A stretch of 64,000 bases of DNA from Candidatus Scatonaster coprocaballi (GCA_018064475.1 JAGHVD010000013.1:9206-73205); one strand, 5' to 3'; shown: positions 3,392 to 53,164, counted from the stretch's first letter. The notes: generated by a model not told the origin, from the letters alone. A program made the numbers and translations.

Positions 3392-5944
3392 ATGGGAGAT
3401 AAGTTCCGAAGATTATATATCGTGCTGGCTATTGTGGCCGGCATGCTGGGCGTAATCATCCTGATTGTTGTAAGTGGTGCACTGATCAGCCTACAGGGTG
3501 GAGCATCTTTATCACAAGAAGATAAGGATGCCATGTATCGCACGGCAGTACTTACGCATACTGAAGCTGCGTTGCCGTACTGGGAAAGAGAAGTCCAGTT
3601 GGGACATGTAGCCATCAGTGACTATGTGGAGAACCAGTTTACATCGCATCAGTATCTGCTTTCCGGTAAGGATGATGTTGCTTTCGCATCCGATCTAGCC
3701 TGCGTAGCGTATAACGATGCCTATGACACGGAAGAAATTGAAGAGTTGCTTCAAGATGCCTCGAGAAGGTATGTCATCGAACAGGTCATCAGTGGCGTGG
3801 ATGAATCCTATGCCCCCATCAACGGGTTCAAAGAGAAGATGGCTACGAGTTGCAGTGATATTGTGGTGAGAAGCCCCCTTGAAAATGAAGAAGGATATGC
3901 GTTCGGTATTCGTAGGATCGAGGGCACAATGGAAGTCGAAGGCAAGGAGATGCGCGCGGACTTCTTTGTAGACCAGTCTTTGCGACCGAGTGAAATATAT
4001 GTACCGCAGACATCCGGGCAAGTTGACTTCACGATGGAGTGGAATACGAAGGGGGAGAATCCGGGCCAACATGAGGTCGTCATTCTTCTTCGTACTTCGG
4101 ATGGCCGTGGACAAGTCGTGACCGGAGGTGAGGTCACGATCCCTGCCTGCACGACGATTGAGAATGATACAGTCGTGCCGAGTTCTATTGTAGCGGGCAC
4201 ACAAGAGTCCTGGTATGAGATCAATGCCGAGAATCGTGATGTATATGTAAACATACTAGAGGCTTCTATAGACATCTCTGCGTCACTCTATGATCGCTTC
4301 GGAAATCTGGTCGGTTCCAATGACTTGAGTAACGTGGATTACGAAGTGTTGCGCGGAAAGTGCCAGCTTCAAGACACAGAGGTTCGGATGGATGAATACG
4401 ATGAGACCGCAAATGAATTCTTCATCCGCGTGAGAAGAAGTGAACACGCGGCACCATCTGTTGCGGAGATCTCATATGTGATGGTTCAGTCGAAAGAAGT
4501 AGCTACCTCGGAGAACACAGGCTATCTGGCGATCCTGAGTGATGTTGGACCGGTACCGACTCCGAGACCTACGACTTCAGTATCGGACGATGAATTGAAT
4601 GCCGTCGTGCAGTGTGTGGATGAGAGTGGCCGCGTGTTGGAACTGACACGCTCCAGCCTTTCATTTGTGCCGCTGAACGGATTCCTGACGGAACTTGATT
4701 TTATCAACGGAGAGGACGAAGTCCTGCCCATCTATCCGGAGTTCTCCATGGATACCTACGACTACGCGCTGGTTGGCGATTCGTTCGAGAAAATAGGTGT
4801 TCGGTATACATCTGTGGAAGGCTATGCATCGAAGATCGGCGTGGAGAATACGTCCTTGTTCGATCCCATACCGGGTGAACTCCAGACTGTTCGTACGCAA
4901 GAAGGCCGCAACGAGGTAGTGGTTACCGTGCTCTCCATAGATGGCTCGAAGCGGACATACACACTTCATCTTCTACAAGGTCAGGACGCAGAGGGTTTCC
5001 GTAGTGCGACGATGTCACAGTTCCCGCAGTCCTACAGCGATGGTTTGTGGCTCCTACACTGCCTGCATCCGAATTATCAGTTCGAAGCCTACCACGTCAA
5101 CACTACTTTCGCAGAAGTGTTGGAGAATGAGGATCATGGCAGCCGTAGTCTTGCAAGTTCATACTACAATCCGTCTTGGGTGAAGAAGAATAGCCCAGTA
5201 TACGATGGAAGTTCGTGGAAAGCCGCCAAACCCGAGGTGATTGCTTATTTCTTGGATCCCAGAAATTTCCTGACGCCAACCGGTATTTTCCAGTTCGAGA
5301 AATTGTCCTTCGATGACCGTGTGCATACGATCGACGGAATCAATATCATGATCCGTAATTCTTTCATGAACGAAGAAGATCCGCCTTATGCACAGATTCT
5401 GTTGAAGGCCGGTAAAGAAGCGAATGTATCGCCGTATTTCCTGACAAGTCGTATTATCCAAGAGATGGGACGTGATGGCGAATCAGAACTGGCCCATGGC
5501 ACATTACCGGGTTACGAGGGATATTATAACTTCTACAATATCGGCTCCACACCTGATCCAGAAGTGAAGAACGGTGCTCGAATCAATGGCGCGAAGTATG
5601 CAAAGTATGGTTCGGAACCGCAGAAGAAGGAGATTACGCCGGAGGAAGAAGCGCTTCTTCTTCCGTGGACAACACCGGAAAAAGCCATCTGTGGCGGTGC
5701 ACTTTGGATTGCACGAAGCTACATCGAGATCGGTCAGGATACGCTTTATTTCCAGAAATTCGACATCGTTGAGAATGAGGATGGGCTGTATCAACACCAA
5801 TATGCACAGAATATTTCTATGGCTTCCAATGAAGGTGTTCGGTACTATAACGCATATGCATCACAGGATATGTTGGAGTCTTCGTTCGTCTTTGTCATCC
5901 CGGTTTATGAAGATATGCCGAACGATTATGGCAAAATACCGTAA
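3392..5944 (+). CDS. membrane-anchored extracellular protein with a C-terminal glucosaminidase-type (cell-wall hydrolase) domain
   Basis: N-terminal TM helix (LYIVLAIVAGMLGVIILIVV). The C-terminal region (...SPYFLTSRIIQEMGRDG...GYYNFYNIGSTPD...) resembles mannosyl-glycoprotein endo-beta-N-acetylglucosaminidase domains. The family assignment rests on motif memory only. Confidence 0.45.
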   Translation: MGDKFRRLYIVLAIVAGMLGVIILIVVSGALISLQGGASLSQEDKDAMYRTAVLTHTEAALPYWEREVQLGHVAISDYVENQFTSHQYLLSGKDDVAFASDLACVAYNDAYDTEEIEELLQDASRRYVIEQVISGVDESYAPINGFKEKMATSCSDIVVRSPLENEEGYAFGIRRIEGTMEVEGKEMRADFFVDQSLRPSEIYVPQTSGQVDFTMEWNTKGENPGQHEVVILLRTSDGRGQVVTGGEVTIPACTTIENDTVVPSSIVAGTQESWYEINAENRDVYVNILEASIDISASLYDRFGNLVGSNDLSNVDYEVLRGKCQLQDTEVRMDEYDETANEFFIRVRRSEHAAPSVAEISYVMVQSKEVATSENTGYLAILSDVGPVPTPRPTTSVSDDELNAVVQCVDESGRVLELTRSSLSFVPLNGFLTELDFINGEDEVLPIYPEFSMDTYDYALVGDSFEKIGVRYTSVEGYASKIGVENTSLFDPIPGELQTVRTQEGRNEVVVTVLSIDGSKRTYTLHLLQGQDAEGFRSATMSQFPQSYSDGLWLLHCLHPNYQFEAYHVNTTFAEVLENEDHGSRSLASSYYNPSWVKKNSPVYDGSSWKAAKPEVIAYFLDPRNFLTPTGIFQFEKLSFDDRVHTIDGINIMIRNSFMNEEDPPYAQILLKAGKEANVSPYFLTSRIIQEMGRDGESELAHGTLPGYEGYYNFYNIGSTPDPEVKNGARINGAKYAKYGSEPQKKEITPEEEALLLPWTTPEKAICGGALWIARSYIEIGQDTLYFQKFDIVENEDGLYQHQYAQNISMASNEGVRYYNAYASQDMLESSFVFVIPVYEDMPNDYGKIP

Positions 5945-42199: not shown

Positions 42200-42356
42200 T
42201 CTTTCTCACTTATTCCCCAGACAAGTCTTTCTTCCGAGGAAGAAACCTTGAGCTTGATGCTTGAAGCGCTGTACAGAATGAGACAAAAAGTAAAGAAGAC
42301 TTGCATTTTGAAAAAAAAAAAATAGAATTATAGAAGTTTGATTTGGGAGGATGACT

Positions 42357-43214
42357 ATGAACAAGAGAATTAAGAATGCGGTGATATGTGGCTTGGTAGC
42401 GTTAGTTACTTTTGTGAACTCAGTTTCGATGATGAAATCACAGAAACAGGCAGCGACGACGACTTACAATCAAGACAAAGTGAAAAGTAACATTTACGCA
42501 CAAGCGAAAGTTGTATGGGATATAGAAGCCGATATTACAGTGAGTGAAAAGAGCGATAAAACAGTTAGTTATAAGAAAAATACTTGGTATCAGGGTATGC
42601 CATATACTCAGTTAGCAGATTATTCGCTGAAAGACTTTGCTTCCTGTTGTTGTATGCATAATGTGCAACGTAGTAAGGTGACTGAAACTAACCTGCTGAG
42701 TAGAAGTTATTTAGTTCAAATTGATCTCAGAAAGTTTGATGGTTGCAAAAATCTAAGAATAGGCAACGACTGTTCGACTGCTGTAGCTGTAGCATGGAGA
42801 TCCTGTAACAATTCTTTACGGATTGAAGATATTGATACTTCCACATTCTTAAGTTGTGCAAAGAGTGGTAGTTATAGCACCTACCATTTGAAAACAGTTG
42901 GGGGCTATAGTATTGGTTCATATACTGATACAAAATCATTTTTGAGCAAAAATGAAAATAAGAGTATAATAAAAAACTGTTATGCTAAACTCAAAATTGG
43001 TGATGCCGTATTCTATAGATCTGGTGGCAAAGGGCACGCTATGATGGTAGTGGCTACCGGAAGCAATTGTGTTTATGTAATTGAACAGTGTGGCCTCAGC
43101 GATAAAAGAACAGTACAACGAACATCATGGGAAGTTGAGAAAAAGTACACATACGATGATCTTATTAAAAGTGGATATCTACCAATTTATAGTACTGATG
43201 TGAGGAAGTCATGA
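42357..43214 (+). CDS. hypothetical secreted protein, possible papain-fold cysteine peptidase/amidase
   Basis: AT-rich. N-terminal signal peptide. Candidate Cys (NDCSTAVAVAW) and His (GGKGHAMMVVATG) pair. RBS GGGAGG. Confidence 0.45.
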   Translation: MNKRIKNAVICGLVALVTFVNSVSMMKSQKQAATTTYNQDKVKSNIYAQAKVVWDIEADITVSEKSDKTVSYKKNTWYQGMPYTQLADYSLKDFASCCCMHNVQRSKVTETNLLSRSYLVQIDLRKFDGCKNLRIGNDCSTAVAVAWRSCNNSLRIEDIDTSTFLSCAKSGSYSTYHLKTVGGYSIGSYTDTKSFLSKNENKSIIKNCYAKLKIGDAVFYRSGGKGHAMMVVATGSNCVYVIEQCGLSDKRTVQRTSWEVEKKYTYDDLIKSGYLPIYSTDVRKS

Positions 43215-45517
43215 GCGAGAGCAACATGAAACGAAAATTAGCCGTTGGGCTAGTCATCATTATGCTATTGGGTATATTGCCTAGTTGCTCACTCTCTCAG
43301 AGCAAGCGTGAGGTCGGAAATGGGGACTCGAGTAAGGAAATGTCACTCTCTATTTCTCAAAGCAATCTTTCCGAGCAGTATTTTCAAGCCGTAGATATGA
43401 TAAGTGGCGTGGACCAAGCAGATACTGCACACAGAATTCTGGGTGCCGCTTTGTCAGCAAACGAGGAGTTTCTCTTTGTTTCATCTGACGAGTGTATCTC
43501 GGTCGAACGGTATGATCAAGAGGGATTGTTTATTTCTAGTTTCTCACAAGAGACTCCATATGTGTATGACAATGGAGGTCGAGGTTTCTACGAAGAAGGA
43601 CGACTGTTTTTTGCCGGATTCTTTGGGCCGATGATGGATGTGTATGAAGTGAATCTGGAGAAAGAGGAAATGAGTAACATCATCCATGTTGATTTGTCGA
43701 AGGATGTTGAGCAACAAGGCTTTTTTCTTAGAGTAATTGGTTTTCGTCATTCTGTTGTATATGCGATGGTGTTGAATGACTTTGGACAAGTAATGATTGG
43801 CTACAGCATTGAAACAGGAGAAGAAGTTTTCCGAACGAAATCGGGTATATCTGGAAACAAGTTCTTCTGGATTCAGGATCAGTTATATGCCTATAATACT
43901 GAAAGAATGCCTAAACAACTTTGGCAAGTTGATGCTGATGGGCAAGGCTCACAAATTCAGAACGAGCAGGACAATGTGAAGTGGGAGGAGTTCTGTTTTG
44001 AAAATGGGAGACAGTTAGTCAGGGATACGGATGGTATTTGGTTCTTTGATGAACGGGGCGTACTTACAAATCTTGTTTCGTTTGCGAATTCCGAGGTGAA
44101 TAGTACGATGCTACTTTCGAATGCTTGTTTTGCAGTTTCTAATCAACTTGACCGCGTGGTACTCTTTGATATCGAAGGAAGAGCGAGTCTTCTGTTTCCT
44201 GGGGAGGGCGACGCGAAAGATAAACAGACGTTGACGCTTGCTTGTGTGGATGCCTCGGGTTCAGAATGGTTGAATTGGGCAATCTATAAGTTCAATAAAG
44301 AGAATGAAGATTACAGAATCGTCTTGAAAGATTATTATTGTTCTATTGATGAGACGAAGTACTTGGATGAAGATGGTGATGTCGATTACTCTGCGGTATA
44401 TGATGCTTCGGAAGAATTGCTTTGGAAGGATGTGGTTTCCGGCCAAGGACCGGATCTGATTCTTCGAGAGAATGGAATCGGGGATAAGATAGGTTCTGCT
44501 TATTTGGACAATTGTGGTTTTATTCAGGATTTGTACCCCCAGTGGTGTGAAGAGAGCGAGGAGTGGAAACAACAGTTTATGTCCCCACTATTTACGCAGG
44601 TTCAGCAACAAGGCAGACTGATGAGTGTGCCAATCGGTATGATGCTCATGTCGGTTGAACTCAATTCGAGATGTGCATTGAGCGAGTGTGGAACGTACAA
44701 AGATACATATAACTATCTTGAAAGTGCATCTGATATTCGCTTCCTTACATGGACGACGAAGGAAGCGTACTTGAAGAAGATGCTTGCGATGGATATGGAT
44801 AGTTTTGTAAATCGAGATCTCAATCAAGCAAATTTCGATAGCGAAGCATTTCAGTACTTACTTTGTCTTTGTAACGAGTATTGTATGTCAAACGAAGAGG
44901 CTGAGATGATTTACGATGAATCAATCATGTTATTCCGAGAGTCGGTAGATGGAGAAGGAGGGAACAACTACCTGACTTATACATATCGACCGATAACAAA
45001 TACTGAGAAACGCAAGAGTGAAACAGGTGTAGTGAGTGGGTATCCTATGGGCCACGAGTGTGACGCATGTGTCGATTATTCCTATCTGATTTCTATTTCA
45101 TCTGCATGCCGGAATAATGTGGCGGCATGGGACTTTATCAAGTACATGTTAAGTGAAGAAGTCCAAAGATACACACCGGATTGGCTTGGTTGCCCTTATT
45201 CACCAATGGTGCGGCGAGATGTTCTTTCTGAGATGATGGATTGCTATGAACATCCGGAAGATCATATGGATTATTGGGATGCTGGTGGTGAATGGGATAG
45301 TGATGTTCTAGGACTGAACAGCTATTCAGAAGATGAGATACAAAGTTTCTTGGATTTCTTTGATTCAACACATCACTTTTACTATTATGATATAGAAATC
45401 ATCGATATAGTGTTGGAAGAATCTGCCCATTATTTCTCAGGAAATAAAGATATGGATAGTGTTGTGCAAACGATAAACAATCGGGTCCAAGTGGTATTGG
45501 ACGAACGTGATTCGTAA
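43211..45517 (+). CDS. large hypothetical lipoprotein with a solute-binding-protein-like C-terminal region
   Basis: Lipobox LLGILPSCS. The C-terminal AAWDFIKYMLSEEVQ block is typical of family-1 extracellular solute-binding proteins. AT-rich. Distant paralog of 56558..58951. Confidence 0.5.
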   Translation: MSESNMKRKLAVGLVIIMLLGILPSCSLSQSKREVGNGDSSKEMSLSISQSNLSEQYFQAVDMISGVDQADTAHRILGAALSANEEFLFVSSDECISVERYDQEGLFISSFSQETPYVYDNGGRGFYEEGRLFFAGFFGPMMDVYEVNLEKEEMSNIIHVDLSKDVEQQGFFLRVIGFRHSVVYAMVLNDFGQVMIGYSIETGEEVFRTKSGISGNKFFWIQDQLYAYNTERMPKQLWQVDADGQGSQIQNEQDNVKWEEFCFENGRQLVRDTDGIWFFDERGVLTNLVSFANSEVNSTMLLSNACFAVSNQLDRVVLFDIEGRASLLFPGEGDAKDKQTLTLACVDASGSEWLNWAIYKFNKENEDYRIVLKDYYCSIDETKYLDEDGDVDYSAVYDASEELLWKDVVSGQGPDLILRENGIGDKIGSAYLDNCGFIQDLYPQWCEESEEWKQQFMSPLFTQVQQQGRLMSVPIGMMLMSVELNSRCALSECGTYKDTYNYLESASDIRFLTWTTKEAYLKKMLAMDMDSFVNRDLNQANFDSEAFQYLLCLCNEYCMSNEEAEMIYDESIMLFRESVDGEGGNNYLTYTYRPITNTEKRKSETGVVSGYPMGHECDACVDYSYLISISSACRNNVAAWDFIKYMLSEEVQRYTPDWLGCPYSPMVRRDVLSEMMDCYEHPEDHMDYWDAGGEWDSDVLGLNSYSEDEIQSFLDFFDSTHHFYYYDIEIIDIVLEESAHYFSGNKDMDSVVQTINNRVQVVLDERDS

Positions 45518-45529
45518 TGGTTGCTGTAT

Positions 45530-46474
45530 TCATCCTGGGGATACTTTACGGGCGAAGTTGTCGATGAGATAGGCGGCTAGACGCTCATAGACGGCGTCGC
45601 GACCAATCTCGTTATGAGGTTCGTGACGCATGCCGTGACGGATGTCGAGCGTGACCTTGTCCTGACCTGCGGCCTGAAGTTTGTCATAGATCTCCTGCGG
45701 TCCTTCTCCATAGTCACCGACCGGATCCTCGTCGCCGGAAATTAGAAGGATTGGCTTATTCTTCGGAATCGAGCCGTACCACTCATCACTGTTGCATGCG
45801 CGAAGCATGTGGAACAGGTCGATATACGCGGAGTGGGTGAAAGTAAATGTGCAGAACGGGTCGCCAGAATACTTCTTGACGATCTCTTTGTCATAGGAGA
45901 GCCAGTCCGAAGCGGAGAACGGCTCGGCGATACGCTTCATATACTGTTTGTTGATGGTTCTTGAGATCAGCTTGGCGGGCTTCTTCTCTCGTACGAAGAA
46001 GCGTTGGAATTTCGCAAGCGCGATAAGTAGGCCGACCAGAGAATTGTTGCGGGCTGTACCGGAGAGGATAATGCCGTCACAATCGTCGCCGTACTGGGTA
46101 AACCAGTTCCGCGTGATGAAAGAACCCATAGAATGCCCAAGTACGATATATGGCTTCCCAGGATAGAGGCTCATCATGATGCGGTGAAGCTTCTCCACAT
46201 CTTCCACGAGATATCTGTCCCCGTCGTTCTTGCCGAAGTAGCCGAACGTATCGTGCTCGCCGACACTTTGACCATGTCCGAGGTGATCTTCGCCACAAAC
46301 CACGAAGCCCTTGTCGGCGAGATGTTCGGCTAGTTCCTCATAACGTCCCATGTATTCGCACATGCCGTGAACGATCTGCACGACGCCGCGCGCTGGAACG
46401 GAAGGAGCCCAGGTGAAATATGTGATTTCGGTTGTTCCATTACTGCTGGTAAAAGTACTCTTCTGCATGGCCAT
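45530..46474 (-). CDS. alpha/beta hydrolase (lysophospholipase / monoacylglycerol lipase-like)
   Basis: Nucleophile elbow GHSMGS. 314 aa. HGxxEYxGRY-type N-terminal block. Confidence 0.75.
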   Translation of the reverse strand: MAMQKSTFTSSNGTTEITYFTWAPSVPARGVVQIVHGMCEYMGRYEELAEHLADKGFVVCGEDHLGHGQSVGEHDTFGYFGKNDGDRYLVEDVEKLHRIMMSLYPGKPYIVLGHSMGSFITRNWFTQYGDDCDGIILSGTARNNSLVGLLIALAKFQRFFVREKKPAKLISRTINKQYMKRIAEPFSASDWLSYDKEIVKKYSGDPFCTFTFTHSAYIDLFHMLRACNSDEWYGSIPKNKPILLISGDEDPVGDYGEGPQEIYDKLQAAGQDKVTLDIRHGMRHEPHNEIGRDAVYERLAAYLIDNFARKVSPG

Positions 46475-46748
46475 GGATAAGTCCTCTTTCGTGTTCGTAG
46501 CCTGTGCCTCGCACGGACTGATATTGTTTACATTATACCCTTAATACAGAGTAACCTCTATATTTTTCAGAAGGAATCGTTCTCGAGATATGCGAAGACG
46601 AACGCTCGAAGAGAAAGCAAGTGCTTTTCCCGACGATACAGCGGAATAGAACTTCTATTTTGGTAAAACCATCGCTCGAACTTTCTTGACGGTCATGTGA
46701 CCGTGTGATAAGATTGTGCCAAGATTACGATTGAAAGGAGGATGGATC

Positions 46749-47276
46749 ATGGGTGTGATGCTTCCCGGTACATTTATCGAAGTTTCACCGGAGAAATTGA
46801 AGAACGTGGATGAGATCCTTTCGCCAATGTTTCTTCTGGAAGGTATGCAGCTTCGACAGATCACGCAGTTGCTCGGTGTGGAAGCGCACACGGTACAGAA
46901 TTGGGTGAAGCGCGGATTCGTAGAATCACCGGTTCGCAAGATGTACGACCGAGATCGTTTTGTCAGGCTGGCGTTGCTGAATTACTTGAAAGACGTTTTC
47001 TCGTTGGAAGGAATTCTCGAGATACTGAGCATGGCCGGGCACCAGGATAACGAAGTGTACAAAGCGTTCTGCGCATTGATGGCACTTGCTCCGGTAGACC
47101 CGATCCGAGCGGAGACGAAACTGAATGACATCATCGATCGGGCGGTGGAAAATGGTGATTTCAATTACCAGCAGACATCGAAGCAACAGGTCGCGAAGAT
47201 GATGACGATCCTGTACACCGCACATTTATCAATCGTAATGAAGAAGGAAGCCGAACGGCTCTTGCAAGAGATTTGA
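46749..47276 (+). CDS. DUF1836-like HTH domain protein
   Basis: ...MQLRQITQLLGVEAHTVQNWVKRGFVESPVRKMYDRDRFVRLALLNYLKDV... fits the DUF1836 signature as I recall it. Start at MGVML behind AAAGGAGG. Confidence 0.45.
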   Translation: MGVMLPGTFIEVSPEKLKNVDEILSPMFLLEGMQLRQITQLLGVEAHTVQNWVKRGFVESPVRKMYDRDRFVRLALLNYLKDVFSLEGILEILSMAGHQDNEVYKAFCALMALAPVDPIRAETKLNDIIDRAVENGDFNYQQTSKQQVAKMMTILYTAHLSIVMKKEAERLLQEI

Positions 47277-47289
47277 AAAGAGGAACATT

Positions 47290-48336
47290 ATGAAATTCTT
47301 AATGGATTGGTTTGAAGCGTTGAATCTGCCTGAACAGATTTTTGCCTGCATCGCAGTTGCATTTAGCGTTCTTCTGATTTTACAGTTTGTACTGCTTATG
47401 ATCGGCGCGGCGTCCCACGCAGGCGATATGGATGGTCACGATATGGGTGGCGGCGATGGTCACGACTTCGGTCACGGCCACGACATGGGTCACGATGTCG
47501 GTCATGACATGGGCCATGATATTGGACATGATATTGGACACGATGTCGGCCACGACTTTGGCCATGATGTCGGCCATAGTATCGGACATGGCGATTTCGG
47601 TCAACCACATGGTGACTTCGGTCACGACGCGGGTCACGATTTCGGCCATGATGTGGGTCACGATATTCATCAAGAAATATTGACGCATGATGGATCTTAC
47701 GATTACAATCATGATATGGACGCCGGCCACGATCACATCGGCCATGTCGCGCACGAGTTTGCCGAGATTCAGGACGGAATCGTGGTGGATGTTCATAGCG
47801 GTGATATCTACTTGGCTGAGGCGCTCCCTCATGTACCGATGGTCAACGGACCGGACGTAGGTATTCCGGATCAGGATCTTCCGGATGGAAGAACATACGT
47901 GGACAGAGCAGACCATGTACATGGTTCGGGATTCAGACTCTTTACGATGCAGGGTATCATTGCATTTTTCTGCATCTTCGGTTGGTCGGGACTCCTGTTC
48001 CTGAAGGGCGGATTACCCGTCTGGGGCGCAAGCCTTCTTGCATTTGTCTGCGGCTTTGCCGCACTGTTCCTGATGGGACTGGCGCTTTGGGGCATGCAGA
48101 AGATCCAATCGGATGGAACATTGAATGTGAAATACGCGCTGGGCCGTTCCGGAGAAGTGTACATTCCGATTCCGGGACAGCGCAAAGAACCCGGCAAAGT
48201 GATGGTAGAAGTCCAGGACCAGCTGATGGAATTTGAGGCGGTCACGGACGAGGATGAGAAGATCCCCACCGGTACACAGGTGACGGTGATCGGTATAACA
48301 AAGGGTACAACACTGATTGTGACCAAACATAGTTAA
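47290..48336 (+). CDS. NfeD-like membrane protein (stomatin/flotillin partner) with an internal His/Asp-rich (GHDx)n repeat
   Basis: N-terminal TM. About 20 consecutive G-H-D-[MVIF] units. A second TM pair. C-terminal OB-fold NfeD block (...GRSGEVYIPIPGQRKEPGKVMVEVQDQLMEFEAV...TQVTVIGITKGTTLIV). Sits immediately upstream of a flotillin gene. Confidence 0.65.
   Translation: MKFLMDWFEALNLPEQIFACIAVAFSVLLILQFVLLMIGAASHAGDMDGHDMGGGDGHDFGHGHDMGHDVGHDMGHDIGHDIGHDVGHDFGHDVGHSIGHGDFGQPHGDFGHDAGHDFGHDVGHDIHQEILTHDGSYDYNHDMDAGHDHIGHVAHEFAEIQDGIVVDVHSGDIYLAEALPHVPMVNGPDVGIPDQDLPDGRTYVDRADHVHGSGFRLFTMQGIIAFFCIFGWSGLLFLKGGLPVWGASLLAFVCGFAALFLMGLALWGMQKIQSDGTLNVKYALGRSGEVYIPIPGQRKEPGKVMVEVQDQLMEFEAVTDEDEKIPTGTQVTVIGITKGTTLIVTKHS
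47434..47665 (+). repeat. imperfect 12-bp tandem repeat encoding the (G-H-D-x)n tract
   Basis: ggtcacgatgtc / ggtcatgacatg / ggccatgatatt ... repeated about 19 times in frame. Confidence 0.7.
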
Positions 48337-48355
48337 TTATAGGAGGAAGTTGAAA

Positions 48356-49876
48356 ATGCCATTTGAAGTAATTTGCTTAATTGTTGTGATTGCTGTTCTG
48401 GTATTTACGTTGTTTCTGATTTTCTTGTCTAGGTACAGAAAATGTCCGTCTGACCGTATCATGGTCATCTACGGTAAAGTTGGTAAGAATGCCGACGGAA
48501 CCGCACGCTCATCCAAGTGTATTCATGGTGGTGCGGCATTCGTATGGCCGGTCATTCAGTCCTATCAGTATTTGGACTTGACCCCAATCTCCATCGCTGT
48601 CGATCTTCGTTCTGCACTTTCCCGTCAGAACATCCGTATCGACGTACCGTCTATCTTTACAGTAGGTATTTCGACAGAACCCGGTGTCATGCAGAACGCT
48701 GCTGAGCGTCTCCTCGGCCTCAAGCTTTCTGAGATTCAGGAACTTGCGAAGGATATCATCTTCGGTCAGCTCCGTCTGGTTATCGCGACCATGGATATCG
48801 AGGAGATCAACACCGACCGTGATAAGTTCCTCGAGGCTGTTTCCAGAAACGTGGAGACAGAGTTGAAGAAGATCGGTCTTCGTCTGATCAACGTAAACGT
48901 TACAGATATCAGCGATGAGTCCGGATACATCAGCGCACTTGGTAAGGAAGCTGCTGCAAAGGCAATCAACGACGCGAAGAAGAACGTTGCGGAGAAAGAA
49001 AGAGACGGTTCTATCGGTGAGGCTTTGGCCCAGAAGGATCAGCGTATCCAGGTTGCATCTGCAAACTCCATGGCTATCCAGGGTGAGAACCAGGCAAAGA
49101 TTGAAGTTGCAAATTCTGAGGCTGTACGTCGTGAGAAAGCCGCTGAGGCGATGAGACTTGCTACCGCAGCTGAGAAAGTTCAGGCAGCTAAAGCACTTGA
49201 AGAAGCATACGCAGCAGAGAAGGAAGCTGAGCTTTCCCGTTCCGCTCGTGAGAAGGCTACCCTCGAAGCCGACGTTATCGTTAAGGCTGAGATCAGTAAG
49301 CGAGAGATGGAACTTGCTGCGGAGGCACAAGCTGAGAAGATCAGAAGACAGGCAGCCGGTGAAGCAGACGCGATCTACGCGAAGATGGAAGCTGAAGCTC
49401 GTGGTATGCAGGAGATCTTGACCAAGCAGGCTGCGGGTTTCGAGAAGATCGTTGCAGCAGCCGGTGGTAATGCTAAGGATGCAATGATGCTCATGTTGGC
49501 AGACAAGATGGAGCAGCTCATGAAGATCCAGGTAGAAGCAATCCGCGATCTGAAGATCGACAAGGTTACTGTTTGGGACAGCGGCGCAGGTGCCGGTGGA
49601 GATGGCAAGAGCTCTACCGCAAACTTCATCTCCGGTCTCATGAAGAGTGTCCCGCCGATGAACGAGATTTTCGAGATGGCTGGTATGCAGTTGCCGGATT
49701 ACCTCGGTAAGAAGATGGGAGACTCTGCAGAAGTTGCAGAAACTGCTGAACCGGAGAAGACCGAAACTTATGAAGCGAAGGCTGACGTAGCCGTTGCACC
49801 GGTAGTAGACACCGATTCGGAAACAGGAGCTGAGGTAGTGAGTGCCAAGGATATTACTCCTTATAACGGGTATTAA
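48356..49876 (+). CDS. floT: flotillin-like SPFH/band-7 protein (FloT/YuaG-like)
   Basis: N-terminal membrane hairpin. SPFH domain. Long Ala/Glu-rich coiled coil (AEAMRLATAAEKVQAAKALEEAYAAEKEAEL). About 507 aa. ATG 48356 behind AGGAGG. Confidence 0.8.
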   Translation: MPFEVICLIVVIAVLVFTLFLIFLSRYRKCPSDRIMVIYGKVGKNADGTARSSKCIHGGAAFVWPVIQSYQYLDLTPISIAVDLRSALSRQNIRIDVPSIFTVGISTEPGVMQNAAERLLGLKLSEIQELAKDIIFGQLRLVIATMDIEEINTDRDKFLEAVSRNVETELKKIGLRLINVNVTDISDESGYISALGKEAAAKAINDAKKNVAEKERDGSIGEALAQKDQRIQVASANSMAIQGENQAKIEVANSEAVRREKAAEAMRLATAAEKVQAAKALEEAYAAEKEAELSRSAREKATLEADVIVKAEISKREMELAAEAQAEKIRRQAAGEADAIYAKMEAEARGMQEILTKQAAGFEKIVAAAGGNAKDAMMLMLADKMEQLMKIQVEAIRDLKIDKVTVWDSGAGAGGDGKSSTANFISGLMKSVPPMNEIFEMAGMQLPDYLGKKMGDSAEVAETAEPEKTETYEAKADVAVAPVVDTDSETGAEVVSAKDITPYNGY

Positions 49877-49972
49877 TGTGACGGACTTGCTTCATTGAAG
49901 CACGAAAACTTAGCAAATGTGACACAAGGAGTTGCTCTTCGGAGCAGCTCCTTTTCACATGGAAAGAATGGA

Positions 49973-51076
49973 TCAGTGACGCATCCGAAGGGTAAGAAGG
50001 ACCAGTAGCTTGATGGTCTCGTTGATGCGGGCGCGGGACTGACCATCCATCGAACGGGTCGCGTCTACGATATAGCCGACGCGTGTAGCCCAGGAGTCCT
50101 CCGGGCTGAAGAGGTTGTTGGCGCCGGATGAGGTGGCAATGCGATAGAGCATCTCGACAAAGGCTTCGCGTTCTTCGTAGTTGATGCTGCCTAGCCACTG
50201 ATTTACTGCGGCAATACGAGTCTGTGCACTGCGGTTCCATTCTGGAACATAATCGAAGTCATCGGTTCCGACTTCCCAGGTAAAAGGACTGTGTTGCGTG
50301 AGCCAGAGTGCGTGGTTGGCGATGAAGCGTGTGCCGGGTGCGCTCTGGAGAAGCATGCCGACGAAAGAGGCGGAAGGTACGAGGTGGTATACGCGATCTG
50401 CGATGGCCTTATAGGCCTCGGTCTCGGATAGGTTGAAAGAGAAGCCCGGACCGTCGAAGGAATAGACACCTAAGATTCGTTCTTTGATGGAGTCTTTGCA
50501 TTCTGTCGCCGCGTAGATGGACAGGTTGCCGCCTTTGGAATGTCCGCCGATATAGAACCGCGTGGAAGGGGCCATCTCCTGTGCGAGGTAATTCAGATAG
50601 CGAGAAGCTTGTTCCTGAGAAGGGATCGGATATTTATAAGCGAGCTGGAAGTCTTCTTTCCAGCCGATGAGGGTGCCGTCGGTGCCGCGAAAAGCGACGT
50701 AGCAAATGTTGTCCGGCATATGGAAGCATACCGCGGCGAACTGGATCTCTTCCGATGCTTTTGTATGGGCACAAAGGTGAGAGACGGAGACATTTCTGAA
50801 GCGGCGACTCAGTCGAAGCGTGTCGATGAGCTTCATGTTCTTGGACGTGTCGGCTGCATATTGGCCGAAGAGTGGCATTTCGTCCGTTCTTGGCATCTCG
50901 TGTAGGAACATGGAATCGGAAAGACGATAAGGCCATTCCTGTGTCCAAATATTCGGAAGCAGATATTCCCACTGGAAGTAGGTGGCTTCGGCGTAAATGA
51001 GTGCGTCGATGGCATTGAAAGGAAACTCATCGAAAGTGCGCTGTTCATTCCGTGCATACTCTAGGATCGACTTCAT
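49973..51076 (-). CDS. DUF2974 (Mbeg1-like) lipase-fold alpha/beta hydrolase
   Basis: YVAFRGTDGTLIGWKEDF and GGHSKGGNLSIYAA are lipase class 3-like motifs. Start at MKSILEY behind AAAGGAGA. The longer listed ORF lacks an RBS. Confidence 0.6.
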   Translation of the reverse strand: MKSILEYARNEQRTFDEFPFNAIDALIYAEATYFQWEYLLPNIWTQEWPYRLSDSMFLHEMPRTDEMPLFGQYAADTSKNMKLIDTLRLSRRFRNVSVSHLCAHTKASEEIQFAAVCFHMPDNICYVAFRGTDGTLIGWKEDFQLAYKYPIPSQEQASRYLNYLAQEMAPSTRFYIGGHSKGGNLSIYAATECKDSIKERILGVYSFDGPGFSFNLSETEAYKAIADRVYHLVPSASFVGMLLQSAPGTRFIANHALWLTQHSPFTWEVGTDDFDYVPEWNRSAQTRIAAVNQWLGSINYEEREAFVEMLYRIATSSGANNLFSPEDSWATRVGYIVDATRSMDGQSRARINETIKLLVLLTLRMRH

Positions 51077-51289
51077 CGTTGGCGTGTCTCCTTTCTCTGT
51101 TCGAATCGATTCATAACAAGTACATTCTATCACAATGGAAAGAAAGGCATGATGATGAAAAAACCTAACGAAACCTTCATAGTTTTTTAATAGATGCAGA
51201 AGTAAAATAAACATGAGCGTGTGAAGGGGGGAAGTCACATGCAAGGAACAAGAGGATGATTAGCTTGATGATTTGGGAAGGAGCCCGAT

Positions 51290-53164
51290 ATGCCTTGGGG
51301 GATGGAATATTCTTATGAGTTTCCGATATGCGCAGCAGTCTTGCTGTCTGTTCTGCTGATTCATTTCTTCAGCAAACGACAGCTTCCGCTTATCCGCAAC
51401 CGGATTTTTACCGCGGCGATTCTGCTTTCTTTCGTGGATGCGATAATGTGTTTGGCCGTGGTTGCCGTACATCGCAACATAGACCGGTTGCCGAAATTAT
51501 TCTGTGACGCTGTGTCGGCCATCTATTTGCTGACACATGTGGGGGCGGTCTTGCTCTCGACTTTCTGTGCGGTGTATGCATTGGTAAGAAGGAAGAAGAG
51601 AGAATCTTCCGGCGTAGTCCTCATCGGCGGCGGTTTCGGCATATGTTCTTTTGCCATATTGGCTACGCAGATCATGCGGCCGACATGGTTCATCTCGTCT
51701 TTTGCCATCGTTGCTGCGATGCTGATTGCTTCGCTTGTCCTGCAACGCCCGGAGAACATGATCGATCATCTGACGGGACTTCTTAACCTTGAGGCGATGA
51801 TGGCCTATACGGATGAACTGATTGCACGCAAGGTACGGTACTATGTCATCGTTGTCAAAGTTGAGAATATCCGACGGATCAACTCGATATTCGGTTATGC
51901 AGTAGGTAACTTAACCATGCGTAGTGTGGCAGATTATCTGTCCACCTTCTCACCCGATCTGAAGGAACGCTCCAGACTTCGTCGTCAGAAGACACCGAGC
52001 AGCCCGGATACAAGAAAGCGTGCTGCCGCCGCAGATGCAAGAAAACTGGAACGTACACTTCCTGCAGCTTGGGCCTTCCGTCTGATGAGCAACCAGTTCG
52101 CAGTCGTCAGTACTTCCATCTTTACTCATGAGTCACTTCTGCGGACGATTCAGACGCGCTTCGATGAGCCGTGGCACATCCGTGGACTGGAGATCACCCT
52201 GATGGATACGGTAGCCGAGATGACCGAGACGGGTTCTTTTGCCACTGGAGAAGACTTATATCGTGTGGTCGAGATCATGATGCCGTCACTGCCGAAGGGC
52301 GATATGGTGACATTGAGTGACAAAGCTTTGGCGAAGTTTAACCGTGCGATCGAGATGGAGAGTGCGCTGGAACAGGCCATATCGACACAGAGCTTGCAGG
52401 TTGAGTTCCAGCCGATCTGCGCGGCCCGAAGTGGTGAGGTGAAGTTCGTGGAAGCGCTGGCACGATTCAAACATGAGAAATGGGGAATGGTGCCGCCTTC
52501 TGAATTTATCCCGATTGCGGAGAAACGTGGACTTGTGGCACAGATCGATGAATTTGTTCTGCGCCGTTCGTGCGAATGGTTGAAGCAGACGGAGAAGATG
52601 GAACTCGGCGTACAGTCGGTACATATCAATGTTTCGGTTTCCGAGATGGCCAGCCAGTCTTTCCCGCTTAAAGTGTGTGAGATCCTAGATGAGTATGGGA
52701 TTGAGCGGACGCAGATCGTATTCGAGATCGAGGAGTCTGCGATGATGACTTCGCTGAACTTGCTTCTTCCCAATCTAGAGCAGATGGCGGCTATGGGCTT
52801 TACGTTCGTTGTGGATAATATGAGCATTGTACAGGCGAGCATCGGACATCTGACGGTGCTGCCGTTCTCACAGGTGAAGTTCAATCGTCATACGCTGGAG
52901 GCGGCCGAGACTTCGCCGAAGGATAAGATGCTGTTCGAGAACCTGATCGATCTTCTGCGGAAGATGGAAGTCCAGACCGTGGTGATTGGCGTGGAGACAG
53001 GCGAACAACTGGATATGGTCGTGGAGAGCAGTGCGGACTTCGTACAAGGTTTCTACTACGCTTCTCCGATGAGCGGTGAGGCTTGTGTCGAATTCATTAA
53101 GAATGAGAGCAGCCTGCGAGAGCGCCGTCCGACCAAGCGTGAATTCATCGTTGTGACGGAGTAA
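51290..53164 (+). CDS. membrane protein with a degenerate GGDEF-like domain and an EAL (c-di-GMP phosphodiesterase) domain
   Basis: Five or six N-terminal TM helices. EAL-domain blocks are ...LQVEFQPICAARSGEVKFVEALARFKHEKWGMVPPSEFIPIAEKRGL... and ...QTVVIGVETGEQLD.... No intact GG[DE]EF motif seen. Confidence 0.7.
   Translation: MPWGMEYSYEFPICAAVLLSVLLIHFFSKRQLPLIRNRIFTAAILLSFVDAIMCLAVVAVHRNIDRLPKLFCDAVSAIYLLTHVGAVLLSTFCAVYALVRRKKRESSGVVLIGGGFGICSFAILATQIMRPTWFISSFAIVAAMLIASLVLQRPENMIDHLTGLLNLEAMMAYTDELIARKVRYYVIVVKVENIRRINSIFGYAVGNLTMRSVADYLSTFSPDLKERSRLRRQKTPSSPDTRKRAAAADARKLERTLPAAWAFRLMSNQFAVVSTSIFTHESLLRTIQTRFDEPWHIRGLEITLMDTVAEMTETGSFATGEDLYRVVEIMMPSLPKGDMVTLSDKALAKFNRAIEMESALEQAISTQSLQVEFQPICAARSGEVKFVEALARFKHEKWGMVPPSEFIPIAEKRGLVAQIDEFVLRRSCEWLKQTEKMELGVQSVHINVSVSEMASQSFPLKVCEILDEYGIERTQIVFEIEESAMMTSLNLLLPNLEQMAAMGFTFVVDNMSIVQASIGHLTVLPFSQVKFNRHTLEAAETSPKDKMLFENLIDLLRKMEVQTVVIGVETGEQLDMVVESSADFVQGFYYASPMSGEACVEFIKNESSLRERRPTKREFIVVTE

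Follow-up and report, generated by a model that had tools for sequence, protein, structure and literature searches.

A stretch of 64,000 nucleotides from Candidatus Scatonaster coprocaballi (GCA_018064475.1 JAGHVD010000013.1:9206-73205; called the window below, with positions counted from its first letter) contains a three-gene operon of an uncultured rumen/gut Oscillospiraceae-type Clostridium, in which the gene of a small DUF1836 helix-turn-helix (HTH) protein precedes the genes of an NfeD-like membrane protein and of a flotillin. NfeD-flotillin operons as such are already established (PMC2636767, PMC11222466); new are the polyacidic, often (GHDx)n, disordered loop between the first and second transmembrane (TM) helices of the NfeD-like protein, which is the hallmark of a subfamily, and a DUF1836-palindrome regulatory module. 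NfeD proteins are described as accompanying SPFH/flotillin genes throughout prokaryotes with a role that is still unclear (PMC13086221, PMC11222466), and a subfamily whose loop reaches a natural extreme of about 170 residues offers a testable handle on this role, be it in metal or proton binding or in flotillin assembly. A full-text literature search returned no paper joining NfeD with the term "histidine-rich".

That the genes form an operon is supported by their close packing, by one conserved promoter shared by all three, by a terminator-like hairpin at the end and by a gene order that persists down to 45% protein identity, which bears out the candidate operon proposed in an initial annotation of the window. 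The three open reading frames (ORFs) lie on the + strand between 46749 and 49876 and are separated by 13 nt and then 19 nt (Table 1), and the order DUF1836-nfeD-floT is kept in all loci of the long-loop clade described below and in a 45%-identical relative. Among 84 related loci, searched with a 31-sequence alignment, a flotillin gene lies immediately 3' of nfeD in every single one, as the annotated pairing of both genes would have it. The DUF1836 gene is found upstream of nfeD in 35 of them, and together with the co-occurring candidate operator this agrees with the small HTH gene being the head of the operon. The hairpin is located 3' of the flotillin gene between convergent genes and has a UUCG loop; a strict terminator scan made no call for it.

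The product of the second ORF falls below the Pfam threshold for NfeD (PF01957; 20.4 bits, cutoff 29.1; its relatives score 16-22 bits) and has no match in NCBIfam, though its modelled OB-fold matches, its membrane architecture and its constant position upstream of flotillin identify it as NfeD-like. The AlphaFold model, built on 120 of the homologues (206 were found), predicts a five-stranded C-terminal beta-barrel of the OB-fold type at residues 287-346 with a predicted local distance difference test score (pLDDT) above 90. The top four Foldseek matches in the PDB are all NfeD OB domains, namely YbbJ (8z5g), PH1510-C (3wwv), YuaF (2k14) and 3cp0, with E about 1e-4 and target template-modelling scores of 0.78 for 3wwv, 0.82 for 3cp0, 0.68 for 2k14 and 0.36 for full-length YbbJ; a profile match to YuaF 2k14 is marginal (E=0.035). 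"Bagel" matches in the profile-versus-PDB search were discarded as spurious repeats of one 22-residue match. AlphaFold and hydropathy agree on three hydrophobic helices (13-38, 220-239 and 244-274), which results in a layout of N-tail, TM1, long disordered loop, TM2-TM3 hairpin and OB fold. With 348 aa, compared with about 190-300 aa in nearly all family representatives and 209 aa in Escherichia coli YqiJ, the protein was rightly described as about twice the usual size; its repeat tract, which had been assigned to the stretch linking the membrane segments to the OB fold, is instead located between TM1 and TM2. The protein is predicted to be the membrane partner of the flotillin and to contact it physically.

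The TM1-TM2 loop (residues 44-214) contains 29 His and 33 Asp and only 2 lysine or arginine residues (K/R). About 80 residues of GHDx units had been annotated here, and this description holds: the protein has 15 units in all, and residues 49-127 (79 aa) comprise 23 Gly, 19 His and 17 Asp, together 75% of the tract. In the AlphaFold model a stretch of 166 residues (46-212) shows a pLDDT below 50, interrupted by a weak beta-hairpin at residues 164-175 (pLDDT about 62). Tandem Repeats Finder reports periods of 12, 24 and 48 nt with 72-80% matches in the repeat DNA. Since the units are diverged to this extent at the DNA level, the tract is no fresh slippage expansion, and since all periods are in frame, phase variation of the frameshift type is ruled out. 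An opposite-strand ORF of 180 aa (47380-47922, - strand) was rejected as a by-product of the His/Asp codon periodicity; homologues and the ratio of non-synonymous to synonymous substitution rates (dN/dS) favour the + frame.

Long loops of this kind are present in about 24 protein clusters of 64-97% identity and 342-370 aa and in one further protein of 45% identity and 331 aa. All orthologue loops comprise 155-191 aa with 19-31 His and 24-39 Asp, and the host genomes in GTDB are rumen/gut metagenome-assembled genomes labelled Oscillospiraceae, Ruminococcaceae or Clostridiales, with the Oscillospiraceae assembly SGB_3808 as the closest relative (93%). The loop consists of two parts, a repeat part with indels yet fixed anchor motifs, and a conserved non-repetitive part (residues 129-215). 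Against the closest genome (L005), dN/dS is 0.08 for the repeat and 0.04 for residues 129-215 at a dS of about 0.9, where the repeat value could be biased low by units aligned out of register, which tempers the case for selection. In more distant orthologues synonymous sites are saturated and the loop composition is retained, and the 97%-identical relative P0001 has two more repeat units, i.e., unit number drifts slightly. Because the tract is conserved in all of the about 24 orthologue clusters despite saturated synonymous sites in most comparisons, we conclude that the tract is maintained by purifying selection and is not the neutral expansion that the initial annotation had offered as the alternative to be decided by a survey of tract lengths. 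As a separate observation, dS varies along nfeD (47290-48336, compared with 5001-6047 of L005), from 0.6-0.9 in the N-terminal half (TM1, repeat and middle segment) to 0.22 in TM2-TM3 and 0.08 in the OB domain, and this unevenness suggests a recombination mosaic within the gene.

With a limit of E<=1e-3, a profile search against 1.84 billion representatives retrieved 6,673 clusters of 50% identity, and a limit of E<=1e-30 still left 1,566; the subfamily is very large, YuaF/YqiJ-like and not captured by Pfam. Among the top 150 representatives, which were used for loop statistics, the TM1-TM2 loop measures 20-183 aa with a median of 50 and is devoid of any K/R in 127; at least five loop His are found in 54, at least ten in 18 and none in 48, and only two of these proteins exceed 300 aa. 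The loop composition of 240 members outside the long-loop clade is 26% Asp, 17% Gly, 9.7% His and 0.3% K+R. GHD is present in 84 of these 240 (35%), with GHDF as the commonest 4-mer, DxDxD in 153, and G[IV]PD in 20, usually inside DGDGIPD, which resembles thrombospondin-type-3 calcium sites (weak TSP3_bac match of 13.9 bits for loops of this type). The tract is accordingly no special insertion, as had been assumed, and represents an expansion of an acidic loop common to the family. The long-loop clade has the longest version of a family-wide acidic, nearly K/R-free TM1-TM2 loop, and loop repeats have expanded independently many times across lineages. In other branches (L049, L053-L057, L084; P0117-P0120) loops are composed of DLDGDGIPDG units, and elsewhere of pure (DA/DT/DF)n. 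A protein search with the loop only gave 95 candidates, none of them significant, presumably due to composition correction, and the sole match of the loop in the PDB, a GEEV low-complexity region of Pfs230, is uninformative. A match of the relative P0094 to CbtA (cobalt transporter) was weak and below threshold and was not used.

The TM1-TM2 loop is predicted with good confidence to face the cytoplasm, as are the OB domain and the flotillin. In 120 relatives, K/R are present before TM2 in 96% and after TM3 in 97%, in the N-tail in 9% and in the TM2-TM3 turn in 43%; by the positive-inside rule this pattern puts the end of the loop and the OB domain into the cytoplasm and the N-tail outside. Loop and OB fold share one side because two TM helices separate them. 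The single TM segment of the flotillin, followed by SRYRK, agrees with the cytoplasmic placement, and so do published findings: the NfeD OB domain is described as cytoplasmic and as binding flotillin (PMC11222466), and the QmcA-YbbJ cage discussed below lies on the cytoplasmic face. TM1 was also considered as a cleavable signal peptide with a cut between ASHA and GD; this was rejected in view of a hydrophobic stretch of about 25 aa, an N-region without positive charge and an OB fold that would come to lie outside as well.

YuaF of Bacillus subtilis, a protein of 174 aa, has the three N-terminal hydrophobic helices, the C-terminal OB fold and the low similarity to canonical NfeD in common with the present protein, whereas the latter has 348 aa and a disordered His/Asp loop of 171 aa between TM1 and TM2. 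The YuaF-FloT pair (yuaFG) belongs to the flotillin-associated NfeD2 group of Hinderhofer et al. 2009, in which, as here, the NfeD-like gene is directly upstream of flotillin, but the yuaF operon is controlled by SigW (PMC2636767), while a DUF1836 HTH gene, preceded by a candidate operator, comes first in the present operon. The E. coli pair of NfeD-like YqiJ and flotillin YqiK agrees with the present one in gene order and in the TM1-loop-TM2-TM3-OB plan, and the YqiJ loop contains His/Asp, too. However, this loop is non-repetitive and only about 30 aa long, and the proteins have no detectable similarity in BLASTP (E=0.61). The YqiJ_N (PF21001) and YqiJ_OB (PF07290) hidden Markov models gave no match at E<=0.1 for the window protein and none at E<=1 for nine relatives; E. 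coli YqiJ itself, used as control, scores 58 and 54 bits. Over its full length the protein is best matched in structure by YbbJ of the E. coli QmcA-YbbJ complex (PDB 8z5g), which is described as 26 heterodimers that form a cage extending into the cytoplasm (Tan 2024, via PMC13086221; 26 copies PMC12624060). QmcA differs in being a stomatin-type SPFH protein and not a flotillin, YbbJ in having about 150 aa without an acidic loop, and a cage of the present flotillin would be hypothetical. Finally, the His-rich loops of CDF/ZnT and ZIP transporters (AtMTP1, ZnT7) are likewise disordered, often His/Asp-rich, cytoplasmic, located between two TM helices and variable in length and His number (PMC10932157). 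In contrast to these, the present host protein is no transporter and has no transmembrane metal site, and its loop is far more acidic (33 Asp).

With regard to function, we tentatively favour, at somewhat less than an even chance, that the loop, concentrated at the flotillin assembly, binds cations and protons with high capacity and low affinity. According to this proposal, one near-consensus promoter would drive the operon, and the DUF1836 protein would bind the palindrome in its spacer and auto-repress. The NfeD-like protein would be inserted with N-tail outside, TM1, cytoplasmic loop, TM2-TM3 hairpin and cytoplasmic OB fold, and the loop would bind divalent cations and protons at the cytoplasmic face of a flotillin microdomain, with its His suiting it to Zn, Ni, Co or Fe(II). 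If NfeD and flotillin formed a closed 1:1 cage as QmcA-YbbJ do, dozens of loops would be concentrated inside or under this cage, and a cation or proton load would alter loop compaction and in turn flotillin-NfeD assembly or the access of clients. Of these elements, gene order, folds, disorder, composition, conservation and the promoter motif are what the data show; topology, operator binding, cation binding and coupling to the scaffold are proposed. Cation binding is favoured by the regularly spaced His/Asp chemistry, the family-wide recurrence of GHDx and the calcium-site-like motifs of other branches; a precedent is provided by ZnT/CDF and ZIP transporters, whose cytosolic His-rich loops differ in length and recruit, bind or sense Zn (PMC10932157). 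Binding of Zn, Ni or Cu, as originally suggested for the tract, is plausible on compositional grounds, and the coupling of metal status to the flotillin scaffold is speculation. Several points weigh against cation binding. No gene for a metal transporter, metalloregulator, metallochaperone or metalloenzyme maturation is found within +-10 kb or in the conserved synteny; what is conserved nearby encodes lipid-hydrolase-like proteins and an EAL protein. As 48 of 150 representatives have no loop His at all, the role common to these loops cannot depend on it. Moreover, a study of Staphylococcus aureus FloA-NfeD reports clamp-shaped dimers and rings (PMC11222466), and a closed 1:1 FloT-NfeD cage in bacteria, modelled by analogy on the E. 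coli complex, is hypothetical.

Protons rather than metals may be what the loop responds to. Because of its His, the net charge of the loop is strongly pH-dependent, with calculated values of about -32 at pH 7.5 and about -8 at pH 5.5. The loop could therefore be a pH-responsive polyampholyte that senses or buffers cytoplasmic acidification, whereby protonation of the about 29 His near pH 6-6.5 would neutralise the polyanion, collapse the loop and alter the packing or activity of flotillin-NfeD. The near-equal numbers of His and Asp are kept in all orthologues, the clade members all derive from rumen/gut metagenome-assembled genomes, rumen organisms meet acid and short-chain fatty-acid stress, and the lack of metal genes nearby fits as well. 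However, the His-free, Asp-only relatives would not titrate in the physiological range, the GHDx spacing suits metal chelation equally, and the conserved neighbourhood contains no acid-stress genes, which leaves this explanation rather unlikely, though a serious rival.

A further rival, equally serious and similarly unlikely, takes the loop as a generic polyanionic entropic spacer, for which it would suffice to be long, disordered, negative and free of K/R, GHDx being one easily expandable way to build it. With these properties the loop might stay clear of the anionic membrane, set the distance between subunits of NfeD/flotillin or bar nucleic acids and proteins from entering the microdomain. 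Acidity and the absence of K/R are indeed the sole universal features of the loop, which varies freely both in length (15-190 aa) and in the type of motif (DxDx, GHDx, DGDGIPD), internal repeats arose independently in many lineages, and the unit number differs even between 97%-identical proteins. Yet the recurrence of GHD in 35% of the non-clade members, with GHDF in first place, suggests selection on the motif beyond charge, and the amino acid sequence is strongly conserved in the clade including the non-repetitive segment of 87 aa. Least of all do we expect an exported loop, with TM1 as N-in anchor, that binds Ca2+/Mg2+ or transition metals where wall and membrane meet: K/R-free acidic loops are more typical of translocated, extracytoplasmic segments and the TSP3-like DGDGIPD of some relatives usually marks extracellular Ca2+ sites, both of which count against the cytoplasmic topology predicted above, but the OB domain would then be outside as well, in conflict with the cytoplasmic flotillin and the published NfeD topology (PMC11222466), and the K/R distribution puts the N-terminal end of TM2 and the C-terminal end of TM3 inside.

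The second new element is located at the head of the operon. In the upstream regions of 12 long-loop loci (the window, ten clade loci and L002) a single block can be aligned, TTGACR-GTCAyGTGACCGTGTGrTA..AT, which corresponds to the promoter of the window. The 16-bp palindrome in its spacer occurs a single time in the 64-kb window. The same arrangement, TTGACA-RTCAnnTGAY-...TGnTAnAAT, is present 5' of DUF1836 genes in Christensenella, other Oscillospiraceae, Fumia and others, i.e., in several families of Clostridia. A strict search pattern for the palindrome matched 22 of 35 DUF1836 loci, every time just upstream of DUF1836, and 1 of 49 loci without DUF1836, there at an unrelated position (Fisher p about 1e-10 to 1e-11; chance expectation 0.74 matches in 778 kb). 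Relatives of the DUF1836 protein with about 30% identity head DUF1836-Band_7-Band_7 operons without NfeD (promoter and operon at 3936-3964 and 4001-6416 in L086, and at about 621-649 and 683-3157 in L088), and because both promoter and palindrome recur there (TTGACAGTCAGCTGACCATATGATACAAT; TTGACAATCACGTGACCATATGCTATTAT), the module of regulator and operator is tied to SPFH operons generally, beyond NfeD-flotillin. From the co-occurrence and the position of the palindrome we infer that this DUF1836 subfamily likely binds it (candidate operator ACGGTCATGTGACCGT) and autoregulates SPFH operons. Since the spacer measures 17 nt and not 19-20 nt, the protein would more probably repress by occlusion than activate in the manner of MerR via DNA twisting. 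The same spacer length, found in the window and its relatives alike, departs from the over-long 19-20 bp of classical MerR activator promoters and counts against the proposed regulation. A second conserved inverted repeat, GTTC-N4-GAAC, is located directly 5' of the -35 element (about 46660-46685 in the window) and also in L001 and L005-L013, while Christensenella shows AGTCAnnCGA at this position; it may serve as another operator or as an UP-like element.

The protein encoded by the first ORF passes the Pfam gathering threshold for DUF1836 (PF08876, HTH clan; 42.6 bits, cutoff 27) and the threshold for MerR_1 (29 bits, cutoff 21.6). Its start is the ATG at 46749, which is preceded by GGAGG 7 nt upstream and aligns with the starts of orthologues; a GTG at 46716 was rejected as it lies before the likely transcription start. 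AlphaFold predicts an N-terminal winged-HTH region and a C-terminal domain of five helices with a pLDDT of 91. Foldseek yielded no significant match for this model, and the C-terminal five-helix bundle has no solved relative among its results; the best weak matches, none of them significant, are the MerR-type CarH (E=0.14), PbrR and GlnR (template-modelling score 0.64 over 78 columns). Resemblance to the MerR family lies in the MerR_1 score, in a palindrome between -35 and -10 and in weak structural matches that are all MerR-type; the family differs in spacer length, in the five-helix C-terminal bundle and in the metal-binding Cys/His motifs, which the DUF1836 protein lacks. The literature on DUF1836 amounts to a mention as HTH-clan family adjoining hemolysin III and DegV genes (PMC3146951). 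The palindrome provides a candidate target and a candidate role for this domain of unknown function, the autoregulation of NfeD-flotillin and Band_7-Band_7 operons.

Taking both elements together, the flotillin microdomain might be a cation- or proton-buffering nano-compartment, lined at its cytoplasmic face or in its lumen by disordered, K/R-free polyacidic or His/Asp loops of NfeD, with the rumen clade as the extreme case; in Clostridia the whole module would be under a dedicated DUF1836 repressor recognizing RTCAnnTGAY in the promoter spacers of SPFH operons. As a whole this picture is conjectural and we consider it improbable; if true, it would give the first concrete biochemical role for NfeD and the first regulon for DUF1836.

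The product of the third ORF is a flotillin, with an N-terminal TM anchor, an SPFH/Band_7 domain (96.9 bits in Pfam) and a long coiled-coil region. It matches human flotillin-1 with E=2.4e-27 over residues 50-420 and flotillin-2 with E=2.9e-21. It is not a member of the FloT equivalog of NCBIfam (NF058507), to which it has a partial match of 159.5 bits against a cutoff of 700. Translation probably starts at the ATG at 48356, located 9 nt after AGGAGG, rather than at the TTG at 48350.

Table 1. Features of the DUF1836-nfeD-floT operon, with positions in the 64,000-nt window.
Feature	Position	Strand	Description and evidence
Sigma-A-type promoter TTGACG - 17 nt - TAAGAT, extended -10 TG	46686-46714	+	promoter scan and conservation
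7-2-7 palindrome ACGGTCA-TG-TGACCGT	46689-46704	.	in the -35/-10 spacer; candidate operator of the DUF1836 protein
DUF1836/MerR-type HTH gene	46749-47276	+	175 aa; first gene, putative autoregulator
NfeD-like membrane protein gene	47290-48336	+	348 aa; AlphaFold and Foldseek
TM1, residues about 13-40	47326-47409	+	AlphaFold helix 13-38 with pLDDT >90; hydropathy
(GHDx)n tract, residues 49-127	47434-47670	+	14 of 15 GHDx units; predicted disordered, pLDDT 40-45
Non-repetitive acidic His/Asp segment (...VVVDVHSGDIYLAE...GPDVGIPDQDLPDGRTYVD...), residues 129-215	47674-47934	+	clade-specific; conserved in 25 orthologues
TM2-TM3 helical hairpin, residues 217-274	47938-48111	+	AlphaFold helices 220-239 and 244-274
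C-terminal NfeD OB-fold domain, residues 280-348	48127-48333	+	Foldseek; YuaF profile match
Flotillin (SPFH2) gene	48356-49876	+	506 aa; Band_7
Terminator-like hairpin AAGGAGTTGCTC-TTCG-GAGCAGCTCCTT, then T-run	49926-49957	+	inverted repeat of 12 nt, 92% complementary, 4-nt loop

Upstream, an alpha/beta-hydrolase gene (Hydrolase_4; 45530-46474, - strand) diverges from the operon, and downstream an Mbeg1-like lipase gene (49973-51244, - strand) converges with it. Within the long-loop clade, synteny includes the divergent Hydrolase_4 (lysophospholipase-like) gene and mostly also the convergent Mbeg1-like lipase gene, and judging from the operon neighbourhood, membrane lipids seem a more likely connection than metals. 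Further upstream, the window encodes a predicted lipoprotein of 768 aa (43211-45517, + strand; N-terminus ...LLGILPSCS...) and, overlapping it from the upstream side, an ORF of 287 aa (42351-43214, + strand), both without a Pfam match at E<=1e-4. An EAL gene is located downstream of the operon in L001, and in L002 an EAL gene and a PLDc_2 cardiolipin-synthase-like gene are located upstream of it; in the window, the Mbeg1-like gene is followed by the gene of an EAL/degenerate-GGDEF membrane protein (51290-53164, + strand).

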